A stretch of DNA of 64,000 bases. It comes from a virus. Its lineage: Duplodnaviria; Heunggongvirae; Uroviricota; Caudoviricetes. Shown here piece after piece: positions 2,038 through 63,845 of this stretch. The number at the start of each line of letters is the position of its first letter. Within the stretch, counting starts at the first letter, position 1. Location of the stretch: positions 33,568 through 97,567 of IMG/VR virus record IMGVR_UViG_3300025292_000002, one strand, 5' to 3'. The translations under genes were made by a program, and so were the position numbers. The notes beneath the pieces are model-generated. The model worked only from the letters and a program-made list of their open reading frames with translations. It did not search any database and was not told where the DNA came from.

Positions 2038-2067
2038 GATTGTATTGAAAGCTAAAAATTTGTAAGG
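2038..2067 (-). promoter_or_regulatory. conserved phage promoter module (family copy)
   Basis: gattgtattga-N12-tgtaagg on + strand, which reads as -35 CTTACA, 16-bp spacer, -10 TACAAT on the minus strand. Confidence 0.6.
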
Positions 2068-2069
2068 TC

Positions 2070-2105
2070 AGCAAATAAAAAAAGGAATCTCAATCGAGAT
2101 TCCCT
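2070..2105 (-). terminator. rho-independent terminator (overlaps stop of topo B subunit gene)
   Basis: hairpin ggaatctc-gatt-gagattcc followed by a T7 run on the minus strand. Confidence 0.6.
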
Positions 2106-3982
2106 ACGTACTTGTACAGATTGTTGCTAATGATTTCTTTACGTCCATCAACAGCTTTCCCCATCCATGTTTCAAGAGATTTAATCATCTTTTGAGCTGA
2201 TTTAACTGTAACTTGAATTAAATTACGAGTTTCAGGATTCATGGCTGTTTCAAACATTGTTTCTGCAGACATTTCTCCTAAACCTTTCATACGAGCAATG
2301 TTGTATTTTCCTTCAATTTCCTTCAATTTACTTTCCTTTTCTGCTTCATTGTAAATGTAAACCATTTCATCTTTAGATGTCTTAACTTCATATAATGGTG
2401 TTTGTGCAATGTGTATTCGTCCCTGTAAAATAAGTTCAGGCATTAAACGATAAATCATAGTAATGATTAAACATGCAATTTGCTCACCGTCAGCATCGGC
2501 ATCTGTAGCGATGATAATTTTTCCATAACGTAAGTTTTTAATATCAAAGCTATCAAGCTCTTTATTCTTTTTATCCGCCTGAATACCGCAACCAAACGAT
2601 TTAACAAGGTCTGTTATGATTTGATTTTTGAAAATTGTATCATAATCAGCTTTTAAACAATTCAATATCTTACCTCGTAACGCATAAGCGGCTTGATAAA
2701 CGCCATCACGTGCTAATATTACAGAACCTAAAGCGGAATGACCTTCTGCTACATATATCTCAGCCATTTCTCCGTGTGTTTTACAATCGACCAAGTTAGA
2801 AGGTGTGCTGCCAATACCTTCGACTCCTTCGCTCAGTTTCTTTTTAAGCTGTTTAGCTGCTTTTGATGATTTCTCATTATGCTTTTGAACAAGTAAGAAA
2901 TGGTCAATCATCTTTTTAAATTGTTTTGGTTGTTCAATTTGGAACAGTTCAAGAACTTCAGCAACATACTTTTGAGAAATAGCTTTGTATAACTTTTTCT
3001 CCGTTGAGAACTTCGTTTGATTTTGGAACTCAACTTTGTTGCTCAATACACTCGCCACGAATGATACAGAAGATTCAATATCATTATTTGAAAACGAGGT
3101 CATACCTTTAGGAAACAGCTTATTGTCACGACAATGCTTATTTGCATAAAGTTTAATACCATTTACAATACCGTCGTAAATTGAACCATGTTCTTTCAAA
3201 TGAGTTAAATTAAGGAATGTTTCTTGGAATGGTTCGCTCGATGTTGATAAAACAAGCTCAACTGTTGTTTGTTCTCCGTTATCATCGAATGTTTTTGAAG
3301 CACCAATCGCTGGAGCACATGTATTTTCCGATGTGTTTTCAGCATAATAATCGGATAAGCTTTCATAATGATAAACCGTTTCTTTATCTTTGTATTTATA
3401 TGTCAACGTTACTTTGTTACTTCCGACAGCTGCATGTTTTACAATATCTTCAATTTCTTCAGAATCGAAAATGTTACTTGTAAACATTTCATCATCTAAA
3501 ACAAATGTGATTTTTGTGGCATGTAGCTCTTTTTCACATTTTTCTTTTGTTAATGGTACAACAATTTCTCCACCGTTTGCAAATTCTACATAATGATAAT
3601 GACCGCCATACCAGCTTTCAACTTTGAACGATTTGGAATTATAATTGGTTGCGGTTAAACCACAACCATTGGTGCCCGTCATAGTCCCCTCTTCGTTTTC
3701 ATATTTACCACCAGCAAACAATGTCAAGAATAATAGCTCAACGTTGTCATCTTCACCTATTGGAATCCCTCGTCCTTCGTCATAACATATGAAAGTACGG
3801 TTATCGTCTAAAAGTTCAACAAGGATATTCCCGCTTTCAAAATTTGTAATGATTTCATCAGTTGAGTTCATAACTGCTTCTCTTGGTGGGTGATAGAAAT
3901 TGTCTCGAGAACCGAACCAAACGGATAATTTTTCTCTCGCTTTGTCACGCTCGGATAATTTTTTGATTTCATCTTGTTTCAT
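2090..3982 (-). CDS. Type IIA DNA topoisomerase, B (GyrB/ParE-like) ATPase/Toprim subunit
   Basis: EGxSA-like motif IYVAEGHSALGS, Toprim motif TDADADGEQI, N-terminal GHKL ATPase region; 630 aa. Confidence 0.85.
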   Translation of the reverse strand: MKQDEIKKLSERDKAREKLSVWFGSRDNFYHPPREAVMNSTDEIITNFESGNILVELLDDNRTFICYDEGRGIPIGEDDNVELLFLTLFAGGKYENEEGTMTGTNGCGLTATNYNSKSFKVESWYGGHYHYVEFANGGEIVVPLTKEKCEKELHATKITFVLDDEMFTSNIFDSEEIEDIVKHAAVGSNKVTLTYKYKDKETVYHYESLSDYYAENTSENTCAPAIGASKTFDDNGEQTTVELVLSTSSEPFQETFLNLTHLKEHGSIYDGIVNGIKLYANKHCRDNKLFPKGMTSFSNNDIESSVSFVASVLSNKVEFQNQTKFSTEKKLYKAISQKYVAEVLELFQIEQPKQFKKMIDHFLLVQKHNEKSSKAAKQLKKKLSEGVEGIGSTPSNLVDCKTHGEMAEIYVAEGHSALGSVILARDGVYQAAYALRGKILNCLKADYDTIFKNQIITDLVKSFGCGIQADKKNKELDSFDIKNLRYGKIIIATDADADGEQIACLIITMIYRLMPELILQGRIHIAQTPLYEVKTSKDEMVYIYNEAEKESKLKEIEGKYNIARMKGLGEMSAETMFETAMNPETRNLIQVTVKSAQKMIKSLETWMGKAVDGRKEIISNNLYKYVGNLD

Positions 3983-4012
3983 TTGTTTTCCTCCTTAAGG
4001 TCATTTCACTGT

Positions 4013-4042
4013 TATTATATTGACAGCTCTCAGAATGTAAGG
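4013..4042 (-). promoter_or_regulatory. conserved phage promoter module (family copy)
   Basis: tattatattga-N12-tgtaagg. Confidence 0.6.
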
Positions 4043-4053
4043 ACACAGCAAGA

Positions 4054-4084
4054 ATAAAAAAATCGGAGCATTTAGCTCCGATTG
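4054..4084 (-). terminator. rho-independent terminator
   Basis: hairpin cggagc-taaat-gctccg followed by T7 on the minus strand. Confidence 0.65.
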
Positions 4085-4085
4085 A

Positions 4086-61839: not shown

Positions 61840-63111
61840 TTAATCCTCGAATTTCGACCATCTTTCTAATAAATTTCGCATTCGTTCAGATGGAATGTAG
61901 CAATTCATTGGTTGTCCTTTACGAATACAACCACGGAACATAAACTGAATCAAATCACTCATAGCTAAAACATCTTCATCAACTTTTGAACCTTTGGATA
62001 AGAAAAATCGTTTTTCCATCGGGTTCATAAAGCGATTATAAATATATGCCATTGATTCACATTCAGCATAAGCATTTGTAGCTCGCATATTCAATGATAC
62101 AAAATTATCCTTTGAGCGGTCATCTTTTTTATTGAATGTACATTTTTTATTTTTTAACAATGAAGCTATATCTTTTTTCGTTGTCCAAAACAAGCTCTTA
62201 TTGCCAGTTTTTGTTTGGGTATCGAAATAGTTTCTTAAATTTTTATTTAAACAAGCAATTTCATCTTTCGTCGCTTTATCAAACCAAGTTGACGATAGCA
62301 AACCTCTTGTTTTATTTTGCATGTTGAAATTTGTATTAAGTTTGCTAATTTTACGTCCTTGTTGATAATCTTCATATATATTTAATTTCTCGAAAATTTC
62401 TTGTCTTGGTTCTTTCAACTTATTGTATGGTACAATTGAATATTTATTTTCAACTTTACTTACGCTAAATTTTTCATATTCAACGTTGTACATATCATAA
62501 TAATATTTTTGTATTTGTCCATCGAATAAATATGTCAAGATGTAAACATCCTTAAAAGAAAGGAAACTATTGATATTCATTGTCCAAAACATTGCCATAT
62601 TTTCATAAATAAACAAATTTTCGCTTTGAGCTAATATTTTAACGTCACGGAATCGAGAATCATCTTCCATTCCATATTCTTCGTCAATCCATGCAACAGA
62701 ACCATCATTTTTCACCTCGATTGCTTTAGCTTGTAATAAATATTGAATATCCTTTGGACTGATTTTTACTGGTTCAAGGACATTCGCTACTTCATCCATA
62801 ATCAACGTATAATCAGCTTGCTTAATCAAATCTAACGTTTCTTGGTCGAGCATTTTGAATAACTGATGTGTTGTTACTATTGATTGCTTAGATTCGAGCA
62901 ATTCTTTAAAATGTGACAATTTTGAACCATTTCCTTTATTGGATTCTGGCTCTAGAAATTCAGCATTAGTGGAATTGATGATTCTGTCGACTTCGTTTAA
63001 ATATGGAGTGACGTAAATGAATTTTTCATCATTTTTTGATTCATTTATGCGTTGTATTGCCCAAGATGTTTTTCCTGAACCACAAATGTCATCTACCACT
63101 TTAATTTTCAT
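61840..63111 (-). CDS. P-loop NTPase of unknown function
   Basis: Walker A VDDICGSGKTSWAI; Walker B-like LIMDE; 423 aa. Confidence 0.55.
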   Translation of the reverse strand: MKIKVVDDICGSGKTSWAIQRINESKNDEKFIYVTPYLNEVDRIINSTNAEFLEPESNKGNGSKLSHFKELLESKQSIVTTHQLFKMLDQETLDLIKQADYTLIMDEVANVLEPVKISPKDIQYLLQAKAIEVKNDGSVAWIDEEYGMEDDSRFRDVKILAQSENLFIYENMAMFWTMNINSFLSFKDVYILTYLFDGQIQKYYYDMYNVEYEKFSVSKVENKYSIVPYNKLKEPRQEIFEKLNIYEDYQQGRKISKLNTNFNMQNKTRGLLSSTWFDKATKDEIACLNKNLRNYFDTQTKTGNKSLFWTTKKDIASLLKNKKCTFNKKDDRSKDNFVSLNMRATNAYAECESMAYIYNRFMNPMEKRFFLSKGSKVDEDVLAMSDLIQFMFRGCIRKGQPMNCYIPSERMRNLLERWSKFED

Positions 63112-63147
63112 CGTTGTCTCCTTGTGTTATTGATTTGTACTTATTAC

Positions 63148-63177
63148 TATTGTATTGAACAATCGAGGATTGTAAGG
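63148..63177 (-). promoter_or_regulatory. conserved phage promoter module (family copy)
   Basis: tattgtattga-N12-tgtaagg. Confidence 0.6.
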
Positions 63178-63289
63178 AGGATTATTAACTATATATAATA
63201 ACAAAAACAACAAAAAACAACATGCTCTGAGGAACGTAGTGACGAAGATAGGAATAACGCCAGTTATTCCAAAGAATTATATAGTTACA

Positions 63290-63420
63290 ATATTAACTTA
63301 ATATAGGAAGTATATAGGATATGTATATGATATAGGAATTATATAATATAGGAAGAATATAGTAATTATATATGTAGCTATAGTGAGTATATATAATATA
63401 TATAGTATTTATATAGTAGT
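63290..63420. repeat. AT-rich iteron-like region built from ATATAGGAA(G/T) and TATAT/ATAGT permutations
   Basis: ataggaagtatataggatatgtatatgatataggaattatataatataggaagaatatag...; no ORF. Confidence 0.6.
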
Positions 63421-63426
63421 AATAGT

Positions 63427-63448
63427 TGCGCTACAGACAAGCTGTAGC
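63427..63448. other. GC-rich perfect hairpin (cgctacag-acaag-ctgtagcg) inside the AT-rich non-coding region
   Basis: 8-bp perfect stem; a second hairpin gctca-tggtcg-tgagc follows at about 63466-63482. Confidence 0.5.
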
Positions 63449-63815
63449 GTATCACGCCATTCGCTAAAGCTCATGGTCGTGAGCATCGTTTGTTTGTTAT
63501 GTATTGGCTATTATATCACTAACTCTAAGTAAATATAACTATCCCATATATGTCTGATTAGCTAAAAAAATAAAGCATATCATCGTAACACCATTCAATC
63601 AGACCTTATGGTGTACTCAAGCGATATGCTCAGCTATATTCCTACCAGTATTTATTTTTATACTTGATAATACTAAAAACAAGTTGACGATATATCTAAT
63701 GATAAAGATAGTAACGAGTGTACTTAATTGCAACGGCTACACTACACCTTGAAGTTGATTGATAAAGGAGTAACTTTCAGCTTATAATCTCCAAGTTATT
63801 TAATTGTTATGATAC

Positions 63816-63845
63816 TATTATATTGAATTGCTGGTGATTGTAAGC
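63816..63845 (-). promoter_or_regulatory. conserved phage promoter module (family copy, variant) firing into the 650-bp non-coding region
   Basis: tattatattga-N12-tgtaagc. Confidence 0.5.

Follow-up and report, generated by a model that had tools for sequence, protein, structure and literature searches.

The window analysed here, 64,000 nucleotides of a Caudoviricetes contig (IMGVR_UViG_3300025292_000002, positions 33,568–97,567), covers the arm of a ~85–98 kb siphophage that is devoted to replication and nucleotide metabolism; its genes are laid out as in Geobacillus phage GR1 and Enterococcus phage VPE25. We searched it with the degenerate pattern TATTRTATTGA-N12-TGTAAGR, written for the plus strand, the one opposite the genes, and found 33 near-identical copies of a 30-bp motif, 22 exact and 11 with 1–2 mismatches. 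Expectations from shuffled sequence were 0.00 for the exact matches and 0.03 for all matches at ≤2 mismatches. A position weight matrix of 41 positions built from the copies recovered exactly the same 33 sites in the window. An earlier sequence-only reading had the repeat and its outermost copies right (2038–2067 and 63816–63845), but counted 32. The contig carries three extra copies just beyond the window's limits (L017: 13439+, 17419−, 17991−). The copies in the window and the genes behind them are as follows.

63816..63845, minus: 1 mismatch, GCTTACA; ~190 nt from the adapter-carrying contig end; ~640-nt ORF-free stretch downstream
63148..63177, minus: upstream of YonV-like helicase (61840-63111)
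61783..61812, minus: upstream of 99-aa ORF (61413-61712); terminator upstream of the copy
60981..61010, minus: upstream of ATP-dependent DNA ligase (59664-60950)
58779..58808, minus: upstream of second sigma-like gene (57780-58724)
57270..57299, minus: 1 mismatch, TTAATA; leader 162 nt; sigma-A-type promoter downstream, ~57160-57133
55517..55546, minus: upstream of thymidylate synthase (54679-55488) and DHFR (54176-54679)
54097..54126, minus: 2 mismatches, CCTGACA; upstream of 96-aa ORF
53534..53563, minus: upstream of YorF-like 338-aa gene (52460-53476)
52345..52374, minus: upstream of 140-aa ORF; 18-bp palindrome beginning 38 nt upstream
51847..51876, minus: upstream of AAA_24 ATPase (50808-51791)
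50603..50632, minus: upstream of SPFH/Band-7 gene (49717-50553)
47239..47268, minus: upstream of small ORFs (47070-47201 onward); terminator upstream of the copy
45374..45403, minus: upstream of 115-aa ORF and a run of small ORFs
43755..43784, minus: upstream of 43330-43716 operon, including 276-aa gene (42333-43163) and NAMPT (40665-42317)
40554..40583, minus: 1 mismatch; upstream of 134-aa ORF; 18-bp palindrome beginning 38 nt upstream
38910..38939, minus: 2 mismatches, CCTGTCA; upstream of phrog_4680 gene and DnaB helicase (36765-38357)
36664..36693, minus: upstream of Rha-like regulator (36062-36637)
36020..36049, minus: upstream of 347-aa gene (34955-35998)
34924..34953, minus: 1 mismatch; upstream of RecJ-like exonuclease (33163-34893)
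31574..31603, minus: 2 mismatches, CCTTGCG; upstream of 567-aa ABC-type ATPase-like gene
29742..29771, minus: upstream of DNA polymerase III alpha (25886-29713)
25838..25867, minus: upstream of 112-aa ORF
25051..25080, minus: upstream member of tandem pair; palindrome between the two members
24951..24980, minus: downstream member of tandem pair; upstream of AAA_33 kinase-like gene (24439-24912)
21151..21180, minus: upstream of nrdI-nrdE-nrdF (ribonucleotide reductase) and thioredoxin
17337..17366, minus: upstream of small ORFs (17114-17308); terminator upstream of the copy
16886..16915, minus: upstream of ORF 16463-16846
11732..11761, minus: 1 mismatch; upstream of 68-aa ORF; last copy upstream of the sigma gene
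8389..8418, minus: 1 mismatch; upstream of thymidine kinase (7743-8354)
5073..5102, minus: 1 mismatch; upstream of ORF 4471-5067
4013..4042, minus: upstream of gyrase/topo IV subunit B (2090-3982)
2038..2067, minus: 1 mismatch; upstream of gyrase subunit A (8-2008)

All 33 copies match the pattern on the plus strand, that is, they are oriented with genes on the opposite strand, and every one is intergenic, upstream of a ribosome-binding site and start codon. The predicted +1 lies 16–65 nt from the start codon in 30 copies, and 133, 162 and 699 nt from it in the remaining three. The copies are spaced at intervals of 1–13 genes (median 2), a wider range than the one to three proposed earlier. 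Lying between DnaB and RecJ, the 347-aa gene at 34955-35998 stands where GR1 and VPE25 have their annotated primase.

The carrier resembles a complete phage: lysis and tail genes lie nearby, and the adapter-carrying contig end is probably a physical genome end; by contrast, no particles have been observed for Bacillus subtilis plasmid pBS32, which has the same gene order around its sigma gene. Its promoter density had been likened to that of large virulent Firmicutes phages, but with its integrase, excisionase-like gene, actin-like partition gene and perfect LexA box the phage is temperate or plasmid-prophage-like, not obviously virulent. Small satellite-like elements without a sigma gene also carry the window's motif variant.

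On the gene strand the consensus is C-CTTACA-N12-TCAA-TA(C/T)AAT-A, and 7 nt past the −10 stands a purine. High information content is limited to two blocks, C-CTTACA (−35 to −29) and TCAA-TAYAAT-A (TCAA at −16 to −13, the hexamer at −12 to −7), and conservation of R-T-A-A at the predicted start is weaker. This profile upholds the promoter class and the −35/16-bp/−10 register of the sequence-only reading, but it moves two details: TCAA lies upstream of the −10, not after it as TCAATA, and the extra conserved base in front of the −35 hexamer is a C on the gene strand rather than GG. The spacer is 16 bp in every copy, and TG occurs in 0/33. The −10 (TACAAT or TATAAT) is a good sigma-A hexamer, and the −35 agrees with TTGACA at 4 of 6 positions, 31 of 33 copies having T where the consensus has G. 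Positions atypical for sigma-A are invariant over the 33 copies, while the N12 is not conserved. From their sequence, the 33 motifs are predicted to be real promoters.

Ordinary promoters are present as well. A sigma-A scan gave 17 matches, one of them a motif variant; the ~16 heterogeneous candidates in intergenic DNA (shuffles gave 6.3 ± 2.3) exceed the ~7 first estimated. These have TTGAxx, a mostly 17-bp spacer and TG, the last in 9 of 17 matches, in agreement with the earlier remark that several carry it. Motif copies shifted to TTGACA, TG or 17 bp number 0/33, though all three are used elsewhere in the same genome.

The window also holds two sigma-like genes, as had been noticed before. 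These genes, and the region upstream of the first, are:

10437..11027, minus: sigma factor gene, 196 aa; ortholog of pBS32 SigN/ZpdN
11028..11493, minus: ORF-free stretch, 466 nt, upstream of the sigma gene
11476-11449, minus: sigma-A-type candidate TTGAAA-16-TATCAT, within the ORF-free stretch
11374-11346, minus: sigma-A-type candidate TTTACG-17-TGATATATT, within the ORF-free stretch
11084-11057, minus: decayed pBS32-type element TTTACG-N12-CATT-ATTCTA, within the ORF-free stretch
57780..58724, minus: second sigma-like gene, 314 aa; phrog_5767 'sigma factor', E=3e-51

The product of 10437-11027 matches TIGR02937 (E=7e-10). Aligned over 99% of its length, it shows 38% identity to pBS32 SigN; identity to its counterparts is 40% in GR1 and 34% in VPE25. 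The genes around it keep the order sigma / actin-like / thymidine kinase. Its region 4.2 helix, RQAANQRV, is also found in SigN orthologs; region 2.4 differs from that of pBS32 SigN. The sigma gene is among the few in the window without a motif, and the 466-nt stretch before it contains no copy. In five metagenomic relatives (L021, L022, L023, L025, L026) one copy of their motif stands 65–85 nt upstream of the sigma gene, and the autoregulatory promoter right before the window's sigma gene appears to have decayed. The sigma-A-type candidates there have a parallel in pBS32, where PsigN1 and PsigN2 are sigma-A-dependent.

Experiments have established SigN (ZpdN) of pBS32 as a sigma factor (Burton et al. 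2019, PMC6751061; 2023, PMC10601692). Its 17 mapped promoters read ATTTACGTTTT-N8-CCAGATATAAATA, with TTTACG at −34 to −29, TATAAA at −12 to −7 and +1 seven nt later (PMC6751061). The regulon comprises gyrase, Pol III, exonuclease and nucleotide synthesis and largely excludes prophage structural genes, and three promoter reporters, low in normal growth, rose 100-fold on SigN induction (PMC6751061). SigN with RNA polymerase suffices for PsigN3 in vitro, and its induction turns on regulon reporters in a strain without the plasmid. The window motif has the same geometry: xTTACx at −34 to −29, a 16-bp spacer in which 12 unconserved bases are followed by 4 conserved ones, the −10 at −12 to −7, and +1 seven nt on. 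The register of the window motif, derived independently, equals that of the mapped SigN promoters. The target genes are shared too (gyrase, Pol III, exonuclease, nucleotide synthesis); copy 29742..29771 matches the position of SigN-dependent PzpdG, and the gyrase-type gene behind 4013..4042 has a SigN-dependent equivalent in zpaB. The sequences differ, CCTTACA / TCAA / TAYAAT-A in the window against ATTTACGTTTT / CCAGA / TATAAA-TA in pBS32; every one of the 33 copies departs from the pBS32 consensus by more than 3 mismatches, and a search of GR1 for the window motif with up to 3 mismatches found no site. The window's sequence variant appears not to have been described before, while this kind of promoter is known from pBS32.

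The pBS32-type motif occurs 17 times in GR1 (20 with a looser pattern), and several copies were found in each examined metagenomic relative with a SigN ortholog. Region 2.4 'KGVRNAT' pairs with CAGA-TATAAA in pBS32, GR1 and relatives (sampled loci 21–33% GC), 'KAKRDLL' with TGA-TATAAT and a 17-bp spacer in Enterococcus phages, and 'KVTGNEA', the window's version, with TCAA-TAYAAT; over all three, neither the helix of region 4.2 nor the TTAC core of the −35 changes. Promoter subtype thus seems to track sigma subtype rather than host base composition, as far as three clades can tell.

The window's motif set is most likely a divergent SigN-type regulon, and we put at roughly 0.75 the probability that the motif is the promoter class of the alternative sigma encoded by 10437-11027. 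The extra conserved positions had earlier been suggested to mark a phage sigma, and they do point to one that the phage encodes. The probable order of events begins with host sigma-A polymerase transcribing the sigma gene from ordinary promoters in the 466-nt region, with a possible contribution, by read-through, from a LexA-boxed promoter lying 1.5 kb upstream. The phage sigma would then join the host core polymerase, recognise C-CTTACA, TCAA and TA(C/T)AAT, the window's own variant, and start transcription at the conserved purine 7 nt downstream of the −10. Some 36 short transcription units would be switched on, most insulated by an intrinsic terminator upstream: gyrase, Pol III alpha, DnaB, the primase-position gene, RecJ, ligase, ribonucleotide reductase, ThyA/DHFR, thymidine kinase, NAMPT and the second sigma-like gene. 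These are replication and nucleotide-metabolism genes, rather than the early or host-takeover region first proposed. Head and tail genes would not be expected in the regulon; the structural arms of pBS32, GR1 and VPE25 are without the motif. Displacement of sigma-A, demonstrated for pBS32 SigN only, may by analogy occur in this phage.

Sigma-A could itself read these promoters, alone or as well, because the −10 is a good sigma-A hexamer, unlike pBS32 TATAAA, and the −35 matches TTGACA at four of six positions. They would then be uniform, slightly sub-consensus early promoters (CTTACA, 16 bp, TAYAAT) used right after infection, their extra bases serving a repressor or shut-off factor or reflecting the spread of one cassette, and the phage sigmas would act only late. 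The purine at +1 fits. So does the version found in Enterococcus phages (TTTACA-17-TGATATAAT), a classic sigma-A promoter of the extended −10 type; in VPE25, the replication arm is already expressed within 10 min (PMC7064774). Both sigma-like genes of GR1 and VPE25 stand behind the uniform motif, the satellite-like elements have the motif without a sigma gene, and one copy adjoins the probable genome end, where one would look for host-polymerase promoters if DNA entry starts at that end. We nevertheless consider this reading, also the primary one of the earlier note, unlikely: the homologous pBS32 promoters are SigN-dependent, the invariant non-sigma-A positions persist while the spacer drifts, no copy has taken up TTGACA, TG or 17 bp, and promoter subtype follows phage sigma subtype in relatives of widely different base composition.

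Less probable still is a different phage factor, either the product of 57780-58724 or a CCTTACA-binding activator acting with sigma-A in the manner of T4 AsiA/MotA. The motif's sigma-A-like −10 and dissimilar −35 would suit it, and the 314-aa protein is conserved family-wide (orthologs in GR1, VPE25 and pBS32-like plasmids), with a C-terminal LuxR/GerE- or sigma-4-type helix-turn-helix and PDB profile matches to that of DesR/NarL. However, SigN alone suffices in vitro and its regulon responds without the plasmid, and 57780-58724 is itself behind a motif and therefore would need another way to get started. That the motif is no promoter but a terminator, RNA processing site, recombination or packaging signal or selfish repeat is very improbable. 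It is repeated, intergenic and often adjacent to hairpins, a terminator-like one preceding 18/33 copies, but these lie upstream, outside the motif, and are not conserved in sequence; no consensus RNA secondary structure was found over the 33 copies, which speaks against the terminator or processing signal that the sequence-only reading had named as its refutation. Strict orientation with genes, a fixed short distance to ribosome-binding sites, two blocks around an unconserved 12-nt spacer and homology to promoters with mapped start sites also argue against it.

The SigN-type regulon can be compared with other systems. Bacillales sigma-A promoters (TTGACA-17-TATAAT, TRTG at −16) share the TAYAAT −10 and the purine start 7 nt downstream; the window motif lacks their −35 G in 31/33, always has 16 bp and never TG, and adds an invariant C at −35 and TCAA at −16 to −13. 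The group-5 sigma factors TcdR/BotR/TetR/UviA have a TTTACA-like −35 (PMC4031146). Like the window sigma, they are small two-domain factors on low-GC Firmicutes mobile elements, whose recognition helix in region 4.2 opens with a Ser/Thr-Arg-Gln motif; variation falls in region 2.4 and the −10, conservation in region 4.2 and the −35, and positive autoregulation is a further likeness. Their −10 is GTTATA-type, unlike the window's. In a profile-profile comparison made with this group, the match reached 90% probability, and pairwise similarity to TetR was not significant (E=1.3, 14% identity).

T4-type PeSL cassettes likewise combine near-identical promoters, often preceded by a hairpin, with a one-strand gene array split into small units; those promoters are early, sigma-70-dependent ones with a suggested role in recombination, whereas the window's hairpins vary in sequence. 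In phage SPO1, gp28 acts as proposed for the window sigma: it is a phage-encoded sigma that sends host core polymerase to uniform promoters of replication genes, though its middle promoters (AGGAGA / TTTNTTT) are unrelated in sequence to the motif and no homology of the window sigma to SPO1 sigma factors was detected. SPO1 gp28 is made from sigma-A promoters, and a further sigma-like function follows downstream in the cascade. In the window, the product of 57780-58724 is a candidate regulator of late genes.

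We counted 22 exact occurrences of the motif TATTRTATTGA-N12-TGTAAGR in the window, and 33 when up to two mismatches were allowed, every copy on the plus strand, against expectations of 0.00 and 0.03 from dinucleotide-preserving shuffles. The repetition noticed in the sequence-only reading is thus borne out, with 33 copies rather than the 32 counted there. Because the window's long ORFs are all on the minus strand, we read the motif on the gene strand as C-CTTACA-N12-TCAA-TA(C/T)AAT-A. The TCAA, earlier placed after the -10, lies upstream of it. A column-by-column count over the 33 copies confined invariant or nearly invariant bases to the two blocks of the motif and left the 12-nt spacer unconserved. 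The -10 is TACAAT in 22 copies and TATAAT in 11. A T-rich stretch is found ~10 nt upstream of the motif's first block, and a weaker R-T-A-A starts 7 nt beyond the end of the -10; its first base is a purine in 32 of 33 copies.

All 33 copies are intergenic. For 30 of them the predicted start falls 16-65 nt before the start codon, and a hairpin plus T-run lies within 90 nt upstream of 18. Each copy serves 1-13 genes (median 2), a wider range than the one promoter per one to three genes first proposed. Targets include gyrA, gyrB, Pol III, DnaB, RecJ, ligase, RNR, ThyA and TK. Outside the window on the same contig, two copies lie past the lysis genes. As proxies for the phage's own head/tail arm we used the Geobacillus phage GR1, the Enterococcus phage VPE25 and the published map of the B. 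subtilis plasmid pBS32. Two motif copies in tandem (25051-25080 and 24951-24980), 100 nt apart with a copy of an 18-bp palindrome between them, were noted upstream of a single gene.

Pfam and PHROG scans identified two sigma-like proteins encoded in the window:
10437-11027 (minus strand): 196 aa, the window sigma, ortholog of pBS32 SigN (ZpdN)
57780-58724: 314 aa, the second sigma-like protein

The window sigma matched the generic sigma-70/ECF model TIGR02937 (E=7e-10) and was 38% identical to pBS32 SigN over 99% of its length (E=2e-27), 40% identical to the GR1 sigma, and 34% identical to the VPE25 homolog, which Burton et al. had pointed out (PMC6751061). A PDB sequence search with the window sigma returned only a weak SigH match and spurious repeat-protein matches. 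The gene order sigma, actin-like, thymidine kinase is common to the window (sigma, 84-aa ORF, gap, ALP_N gene, thymidine kinase) and pBS32 (guanylate kinase, RusA, gap, sigN, gap, actin-like AlfA, thymidine kinase). The second sigma-like protein matched phrog_5767 'sigma factor' and has a LuxR/sigma-4-type helix-turn-helix; its orthologs were found in GR1, VPE25 and pBS32-type plasmids.

A full-text search on the GR1-type promoter block retrieved Burton et al. 2019 (PMC6751061). Rend-seq after SigN induction had mapped 17 promoters in that study, listed from -40 to +1, which read ATTTACGTTTT-N8-CCAGATATAAATA and serve operons for DNA gyrase, DNA Pol III, an exonuclease and nucleotide synthesis. 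Activity of the three SigN reporters tested was low during normal growth and increased 100-fold once SigN was induced, and the pBS32 prophage structural operon was unresponsive to SigN. When purified SigN was added to RNA polymerase in vitro, a new transcript appeared and sigma-A transcripts were reduced (PMC6751061); SigN beats sigma-A in competition for core polymerase (PMC10601692).

Like the pBS32 regulon, the window element encodes its own SigN ortholog, and its motif stands before replication and nucleotide-metabolism genes; the tail and lysis genes covered beyond the window, ~4 kb in all, hold no copy. The geometry is also shared. Counting back from +1 places TTTACG at -34 to -29 and TATAAA at -12 to -7 in the mapped SigN promoters; in the window the -35 is at -34 to -29, the spacer is 16 bp, the -10 is at -12 to -7 and the predicted +1 follows seven nt on. 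The register taken from the 33 copies equals that of Table 2 in PMC6751061, and a looser pattern scan gave 30 window sites with a 16-bp spacer. Unlike the pBS32 promoters, the window copies do not fit the consensus ATTTACGTTTT-N8-CCAGATATAAATA; none of the 33 came within three mismatches of TTTACG-N12-CAGATATAAA, for which the window has just five weak, unrelated matches. The core common to both is TTAC...A-TA.AA. Since the family consensus fails here, we regard the window motif as a specificity variant. Judged from sequence, the window feature is homologous to the pBS32 SigN regulon and is predicted to work like it.

GR1 has zero sites within three mismatches of the window motif. Ahead of its replication-arm genes are 17 copies of ATTTACGTTTT-N8-CAGATATAAATA, and VPE25 and its relatives carry ~25 copies of GTTTACA-N14-TGATATAATATAA, plus a variant class. 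Using the sigma protein as query we collected 14 IMG/VR loci. Most of the loci scanned carry several copies of the GR1-type or VPE25-type promoter, and in five (L021, L022, L023, L025, L026) one promoter copy stands 65-85 nt ahead of the sigma gene. The 16-bp spacer of 12 unconserved plus 4 conserved bases is common to the GR1 and window types. Sigma region 2.4 occurs in three types, with one -10-proximal block paired with each.

Types of sigma region 2.4 and their promoter blocks
KGVRNAT, with CAGA-TATAAA: pBS32, GR1 and relatives (sampled loci 21-33% GC)
KAKRDLL, with TGA-TATAAT and a 17-bp spacer: Enterococcus phages
KVTGNEA, with TCAA-TAYAAT: the window

A recognition helix in region 4.2, (S/T)RQAANQRV, is common to the window, pBS32 and GR1 sigmas, a constancy that parallels that of the TTAC core of the -35. 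We infer that the window sigma reads the window variant of the motif.

Further promoter arrangements were seen in these phages. GR1 has a second uniform class, TTGCAAAAAATTG...GTGTACGAAC-N9-TGATATAATAAT...TAGAGAGAT (in the GR1 records L015/L016 at 1062, 39987, 52556 and others, and at 78199-78437), whose spacer holds a LexA-box-like CGAAC-N4-GTTCG/GTTCC; related sequences stand at the head of the late operon. Upstream of the GR1 sigma gene is a convergent pair (37474+, 37544-) reminiscent of the antisense control of pBS32 sigN. At many VPE25 promoters (L019, e.g. 13684, 14792, 36883) the upstream terminator hairpin overlaps the promoter, so compactly that the GTTTACA -35 is in or beside the hairpin loop and the terminator T-run serves as the spacer before TGATATAAT.

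The -10 of the motif has the features that sigma-A looks for (TATAAT-like, A at -11, T at -7), and its spacer, always 16 bp, is inside the tolerated 17 +/- 1. CTTACA matches TTGACA at 4 of 6 positions, and in 31 of 33 copies the consensus G is replaced by T. TG or TRTG is absent from all 33 copies, with an invariant TCAA in its place. Positions that sigma-A can dispense with are fixed while the spacer drifts, which argues for a different reader and against recent duplication. We also scanned intergenic DNA on the gene strand for ordinary sigma-A-type promoters, requiring a good -10 and either a TTG-type -35 at 16-18 bp or TG with a weaker -35. This gave 17 candidates, one of them a motif variant; shuffles gave 6.3 +/- 2.3 (maximum 12 of 200). 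They are heterogeneous, with a spacer mostly of 17 bp and TG in nine, and sit ahead of mainly small ORFs of no assigned function, the actin-like gene and the sigma gene. A generic promoter scanner was uninformative (74 found in the window versus 77 expected).

Most likely, with a probability of about 75%, sigma-A polymerase makes the phage sigma, which would send core polymerase to the motif promoters, ~36 in number, of a replication and nucleotide regulon. This regulon would include the gene for the second sigma-like protein, which may act on late genes, giving a temporal order of expression, and the window sigma would compete with sigma-A. Terminators upstream of most copies would insulate the transcription units. 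That sigma-A alone reads the motif is less probable by far, yet deserves weight for four reasons: the -10 hexamer suits sigma-A well, the Enterococcus version has the canonical extended -10 form, one copy adjoins a probable genome end, and the motif is present on elements without a sigma. A different phage factor as reader is less probable again, since SigN suffices in pBS32. We give hardly any credence to the motif not being a promoter, which is contradicted by its orientation, its placement, its homology to mapped promoters and its lack of structure; consensus RNA folding of the 33 copies gave no pairs and no common secondary structure, and on that result a terminator or processing-site reading was rejected.

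The regulon would function like SPO1 gp28 middle transcription, without being related to it. Membership in the TcdR group was considered because TcdR-type group-5 sigmas (PMC4031146) resemble the window sigma in its SRQ motif of region 4.2 and the window motif in its TTTACA-like -35 (CTTACA). GISRQAANQRV of the window sigma aligns with MSRQAVYKNK of TetR. BLASTP gave E=1.3; hhalign gave 90% probability and E=1.5e-6 over the full length, in a comparison run without other sigma-70 subfamilies as control. These comparisons did not establish a specific homology to TcdR/BotR/TetR/UviA.

The 466 nt upstream of the sigma gene (11028-11493) have no ORF and no motif copy. Sequence prediction placed these elements there, the third being the only pBS32-type one:
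11476-11449: sigma-A-type promoter
11374-11346: sigma-A-type promoter
11084-11057: decayed pBS32-type element

The same region contains four or five GTCGAA repeats (~11255-11160) and three TGTAAC repeats (~11300-11270). In pBS32, three promoters serve sigN: a strong sigma-A promoter repressed by LexA, a second, weak sigma-A promoter, and one that depends on SigN (PMC6751061). LexA boxes are not enriched in the window (18 versus 14 expected at up to two mismatches). A perfect LexA/DinR box, CGAACGATTGTTCG, was noted at 12573-12586 (~0.02 perfect boxes expected by chance). The box, 1.5 kb upstream of the sigma gene, falls within the spacer of a TTTACA-18-TACTAT promoter that precedes 12011-12538. 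This arrangement recalls the LexA-repressed PsigN1 of pBS32, and the box suggests that expression may be SOS-inducible.

The Pfam and PHROG scans further showed gyrase A and B, a class Ib ribonucleotide reductase with NrdI, Pol III alpha, DnaB, a RecJ-like exonuclease, an ATP-dependent DNA ligase, ThyA, DHFR, thymidine kinase, NAMPT and an actin-like ALP_N protein. A 347-aa gene between DnaB and RecJ sits where GR1 and VPE25 have their annotated primase. An Rfam gathering scan and a tRNA scan of the window gave no matches. Two public contigs, 84.9 and 97.6 kb long, carry the window proteins as well. No GenBank phage matched the Pol III gene by megablast, the phage itself not being deposited there; the nearest deposited relatives are GR1 (Pol III 57.6% identical) and 85-92 kb Staphylococcus/Enterococcus siphophages. 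The two-arm layout is found in GR1 and VPE25 as well, and in VPE25 RNA-seq the replication arm is on by 10 min, while the structural arm is on by the 40-min point (PMC7064774).

Past the window start come an HTH_17/excisionase-like gene, then an opposite-strand integrase-family gene, holin, amidase and tail genes. At its other end, past the window, the contig runs into Illumina adapter sequence and breaks off 925 nt upstream of the helicase gene (61840-63111), pointing to a physical DNA end ~190 nt away from the last motif copy. Its final ~900 nt lack an ORF, have many short TATAT-type repeats, and hold a single motif copy plus one TG-extended sigma-A-type promoter (63518); the left end of VPE25 likewise has ~1 kb without an ORF. 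On L017 and L018, which reach outside the window, these features are:
L018 1-36 and 37-925 (63178-64000 and on): contig end, Illumina adapter sequence at the terminus
L017 13157-13405 and 15567-16550: integrase-family and excisionase-like genes, just outside the window

The ALP_N gene (9012-9842) is the counterpart of pBS32 AlfA. Ahead of it is a repeat-rich stretch of 321 nt (9843-10163) that lacks an ORF and may be a parN-like centromere. The ALP_N gene and this region, taken with the integrase-family and excisionase-like genes, suggest a plasmid-prophage lifestyle, an idea raised for pBS32 in PMC10601692.

We searched for more carriers with a position weight matrix built from the 33 copies (background maximum 7.6 in shuffled 15-kb pieces). 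Each of several ~15-19 kb IMG/VR elements had 2-3 sites at 26-42 bits; GR1, VPE25 and the pBS32 segment had no hits of 14 or more.
L002, L003/L011, L004, L006, L007, L009, L013, L014: IMG/VR loci with window-type promoters
L013 1742 (-), 4457 (+), 12122 (+): window-type promoters found by the matrix

L013 is a complete element of 14.7 kb with integrase, excisionase, HNH, TerL (60% identical to GR1 TerL), portal and protease-capsid genes; no tail gene and no sigma gene were found among its ORFs. In L004 a helicase 61% identical to that of 61840-63111 lies behind a window-type promoter. L013 and its kin may be capsid-forming satellites that are trans-activated by the helper phage's sigma, and if so, these satellites would be listening for their helper's sigma factor. 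Scans for the exact motif gave at most two matches per contig in IMG/VR, several in satellite-like elements, one per contig in GTDB genomes among the matches listed, and one per contig in metagenome contigs. No second multi-copy carrier of the window variant was found in IMG/VR, in metagenome contigs or among the GTDB matches listed.

As a kind of system, a SigN carried by a phage or plasmid together with its own promoters is already known. The window consensus, the full turnover of the promoter set and the three-way co-variation of sigma and promoter are undescribed in the literature searched; a full-text search on the blocks of the window motif found no relevant paper, and searches on GR1 and SEP9 promoters found nothing. 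Tentatively, and with more doubt than belief, the phage and its sigma could be a private, effectively orthogonal pair that co-evolved off the pBS32 type, with satellites switched on in trans; ~36 promoters would have been replaced regulon-wide, with no ancestral-type promoter left in use. The biological purpose of SigN is debated. To our knowledge it has been studied so far only on pBS32, which has never been seen to make particles. That a seemingly complete phage has this regulatory design supports the view of SigN as a middle-gene sigma of phages, one that captures core polymerase. The three paired subtypes form a natural series for the residues that read the -35 flank and the -16 to -13 block, and put orthogonal sigma/promoter pairs at hand for Bacillus engineering. 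For annotation, the lesson is that a uniform motif that looks like sigma-A's can be a phage sigma's.

Other small elements were noted in the window. A near-consensus sigma-A promoter (TTGACA-17-TAGAAT) has a hairpin and T-run ~50 nt downstream, and the DNA separating them holds no ORF (33162-33075, minus strand); this is a candidate small RNA or attenuator, with no Rfam match. A perfect 18-bp palindrome, TTGAAWATTAATATTCAA, occurs at 15 intergenic sites, among them:
59619-59636, 52395-52412, 47056-47073, 40604-40621, 32065-32082, 29792-29809, 7123-7140: palindrome copies

The palindrome probably serves a dimeric regulator as its operator; no protein that binds it was identified. Three copies begin exactly 38 nt upstream of a motif copy, and others stand a short way ahead of sigma-A-type promoters (47936, 33066, 32082, 61077) or immediately ahead of ribosome-binding sites. 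The copy at 61060-61077 lies ~20 nt upstream of a TG-extended promoter, TGTTATAAT (61098-61106), belonging to the only convincing plus-strand gene (61136-61393, 85 aa, no family match), which is directed toward the upstream 99-aa gene (61413-61712).
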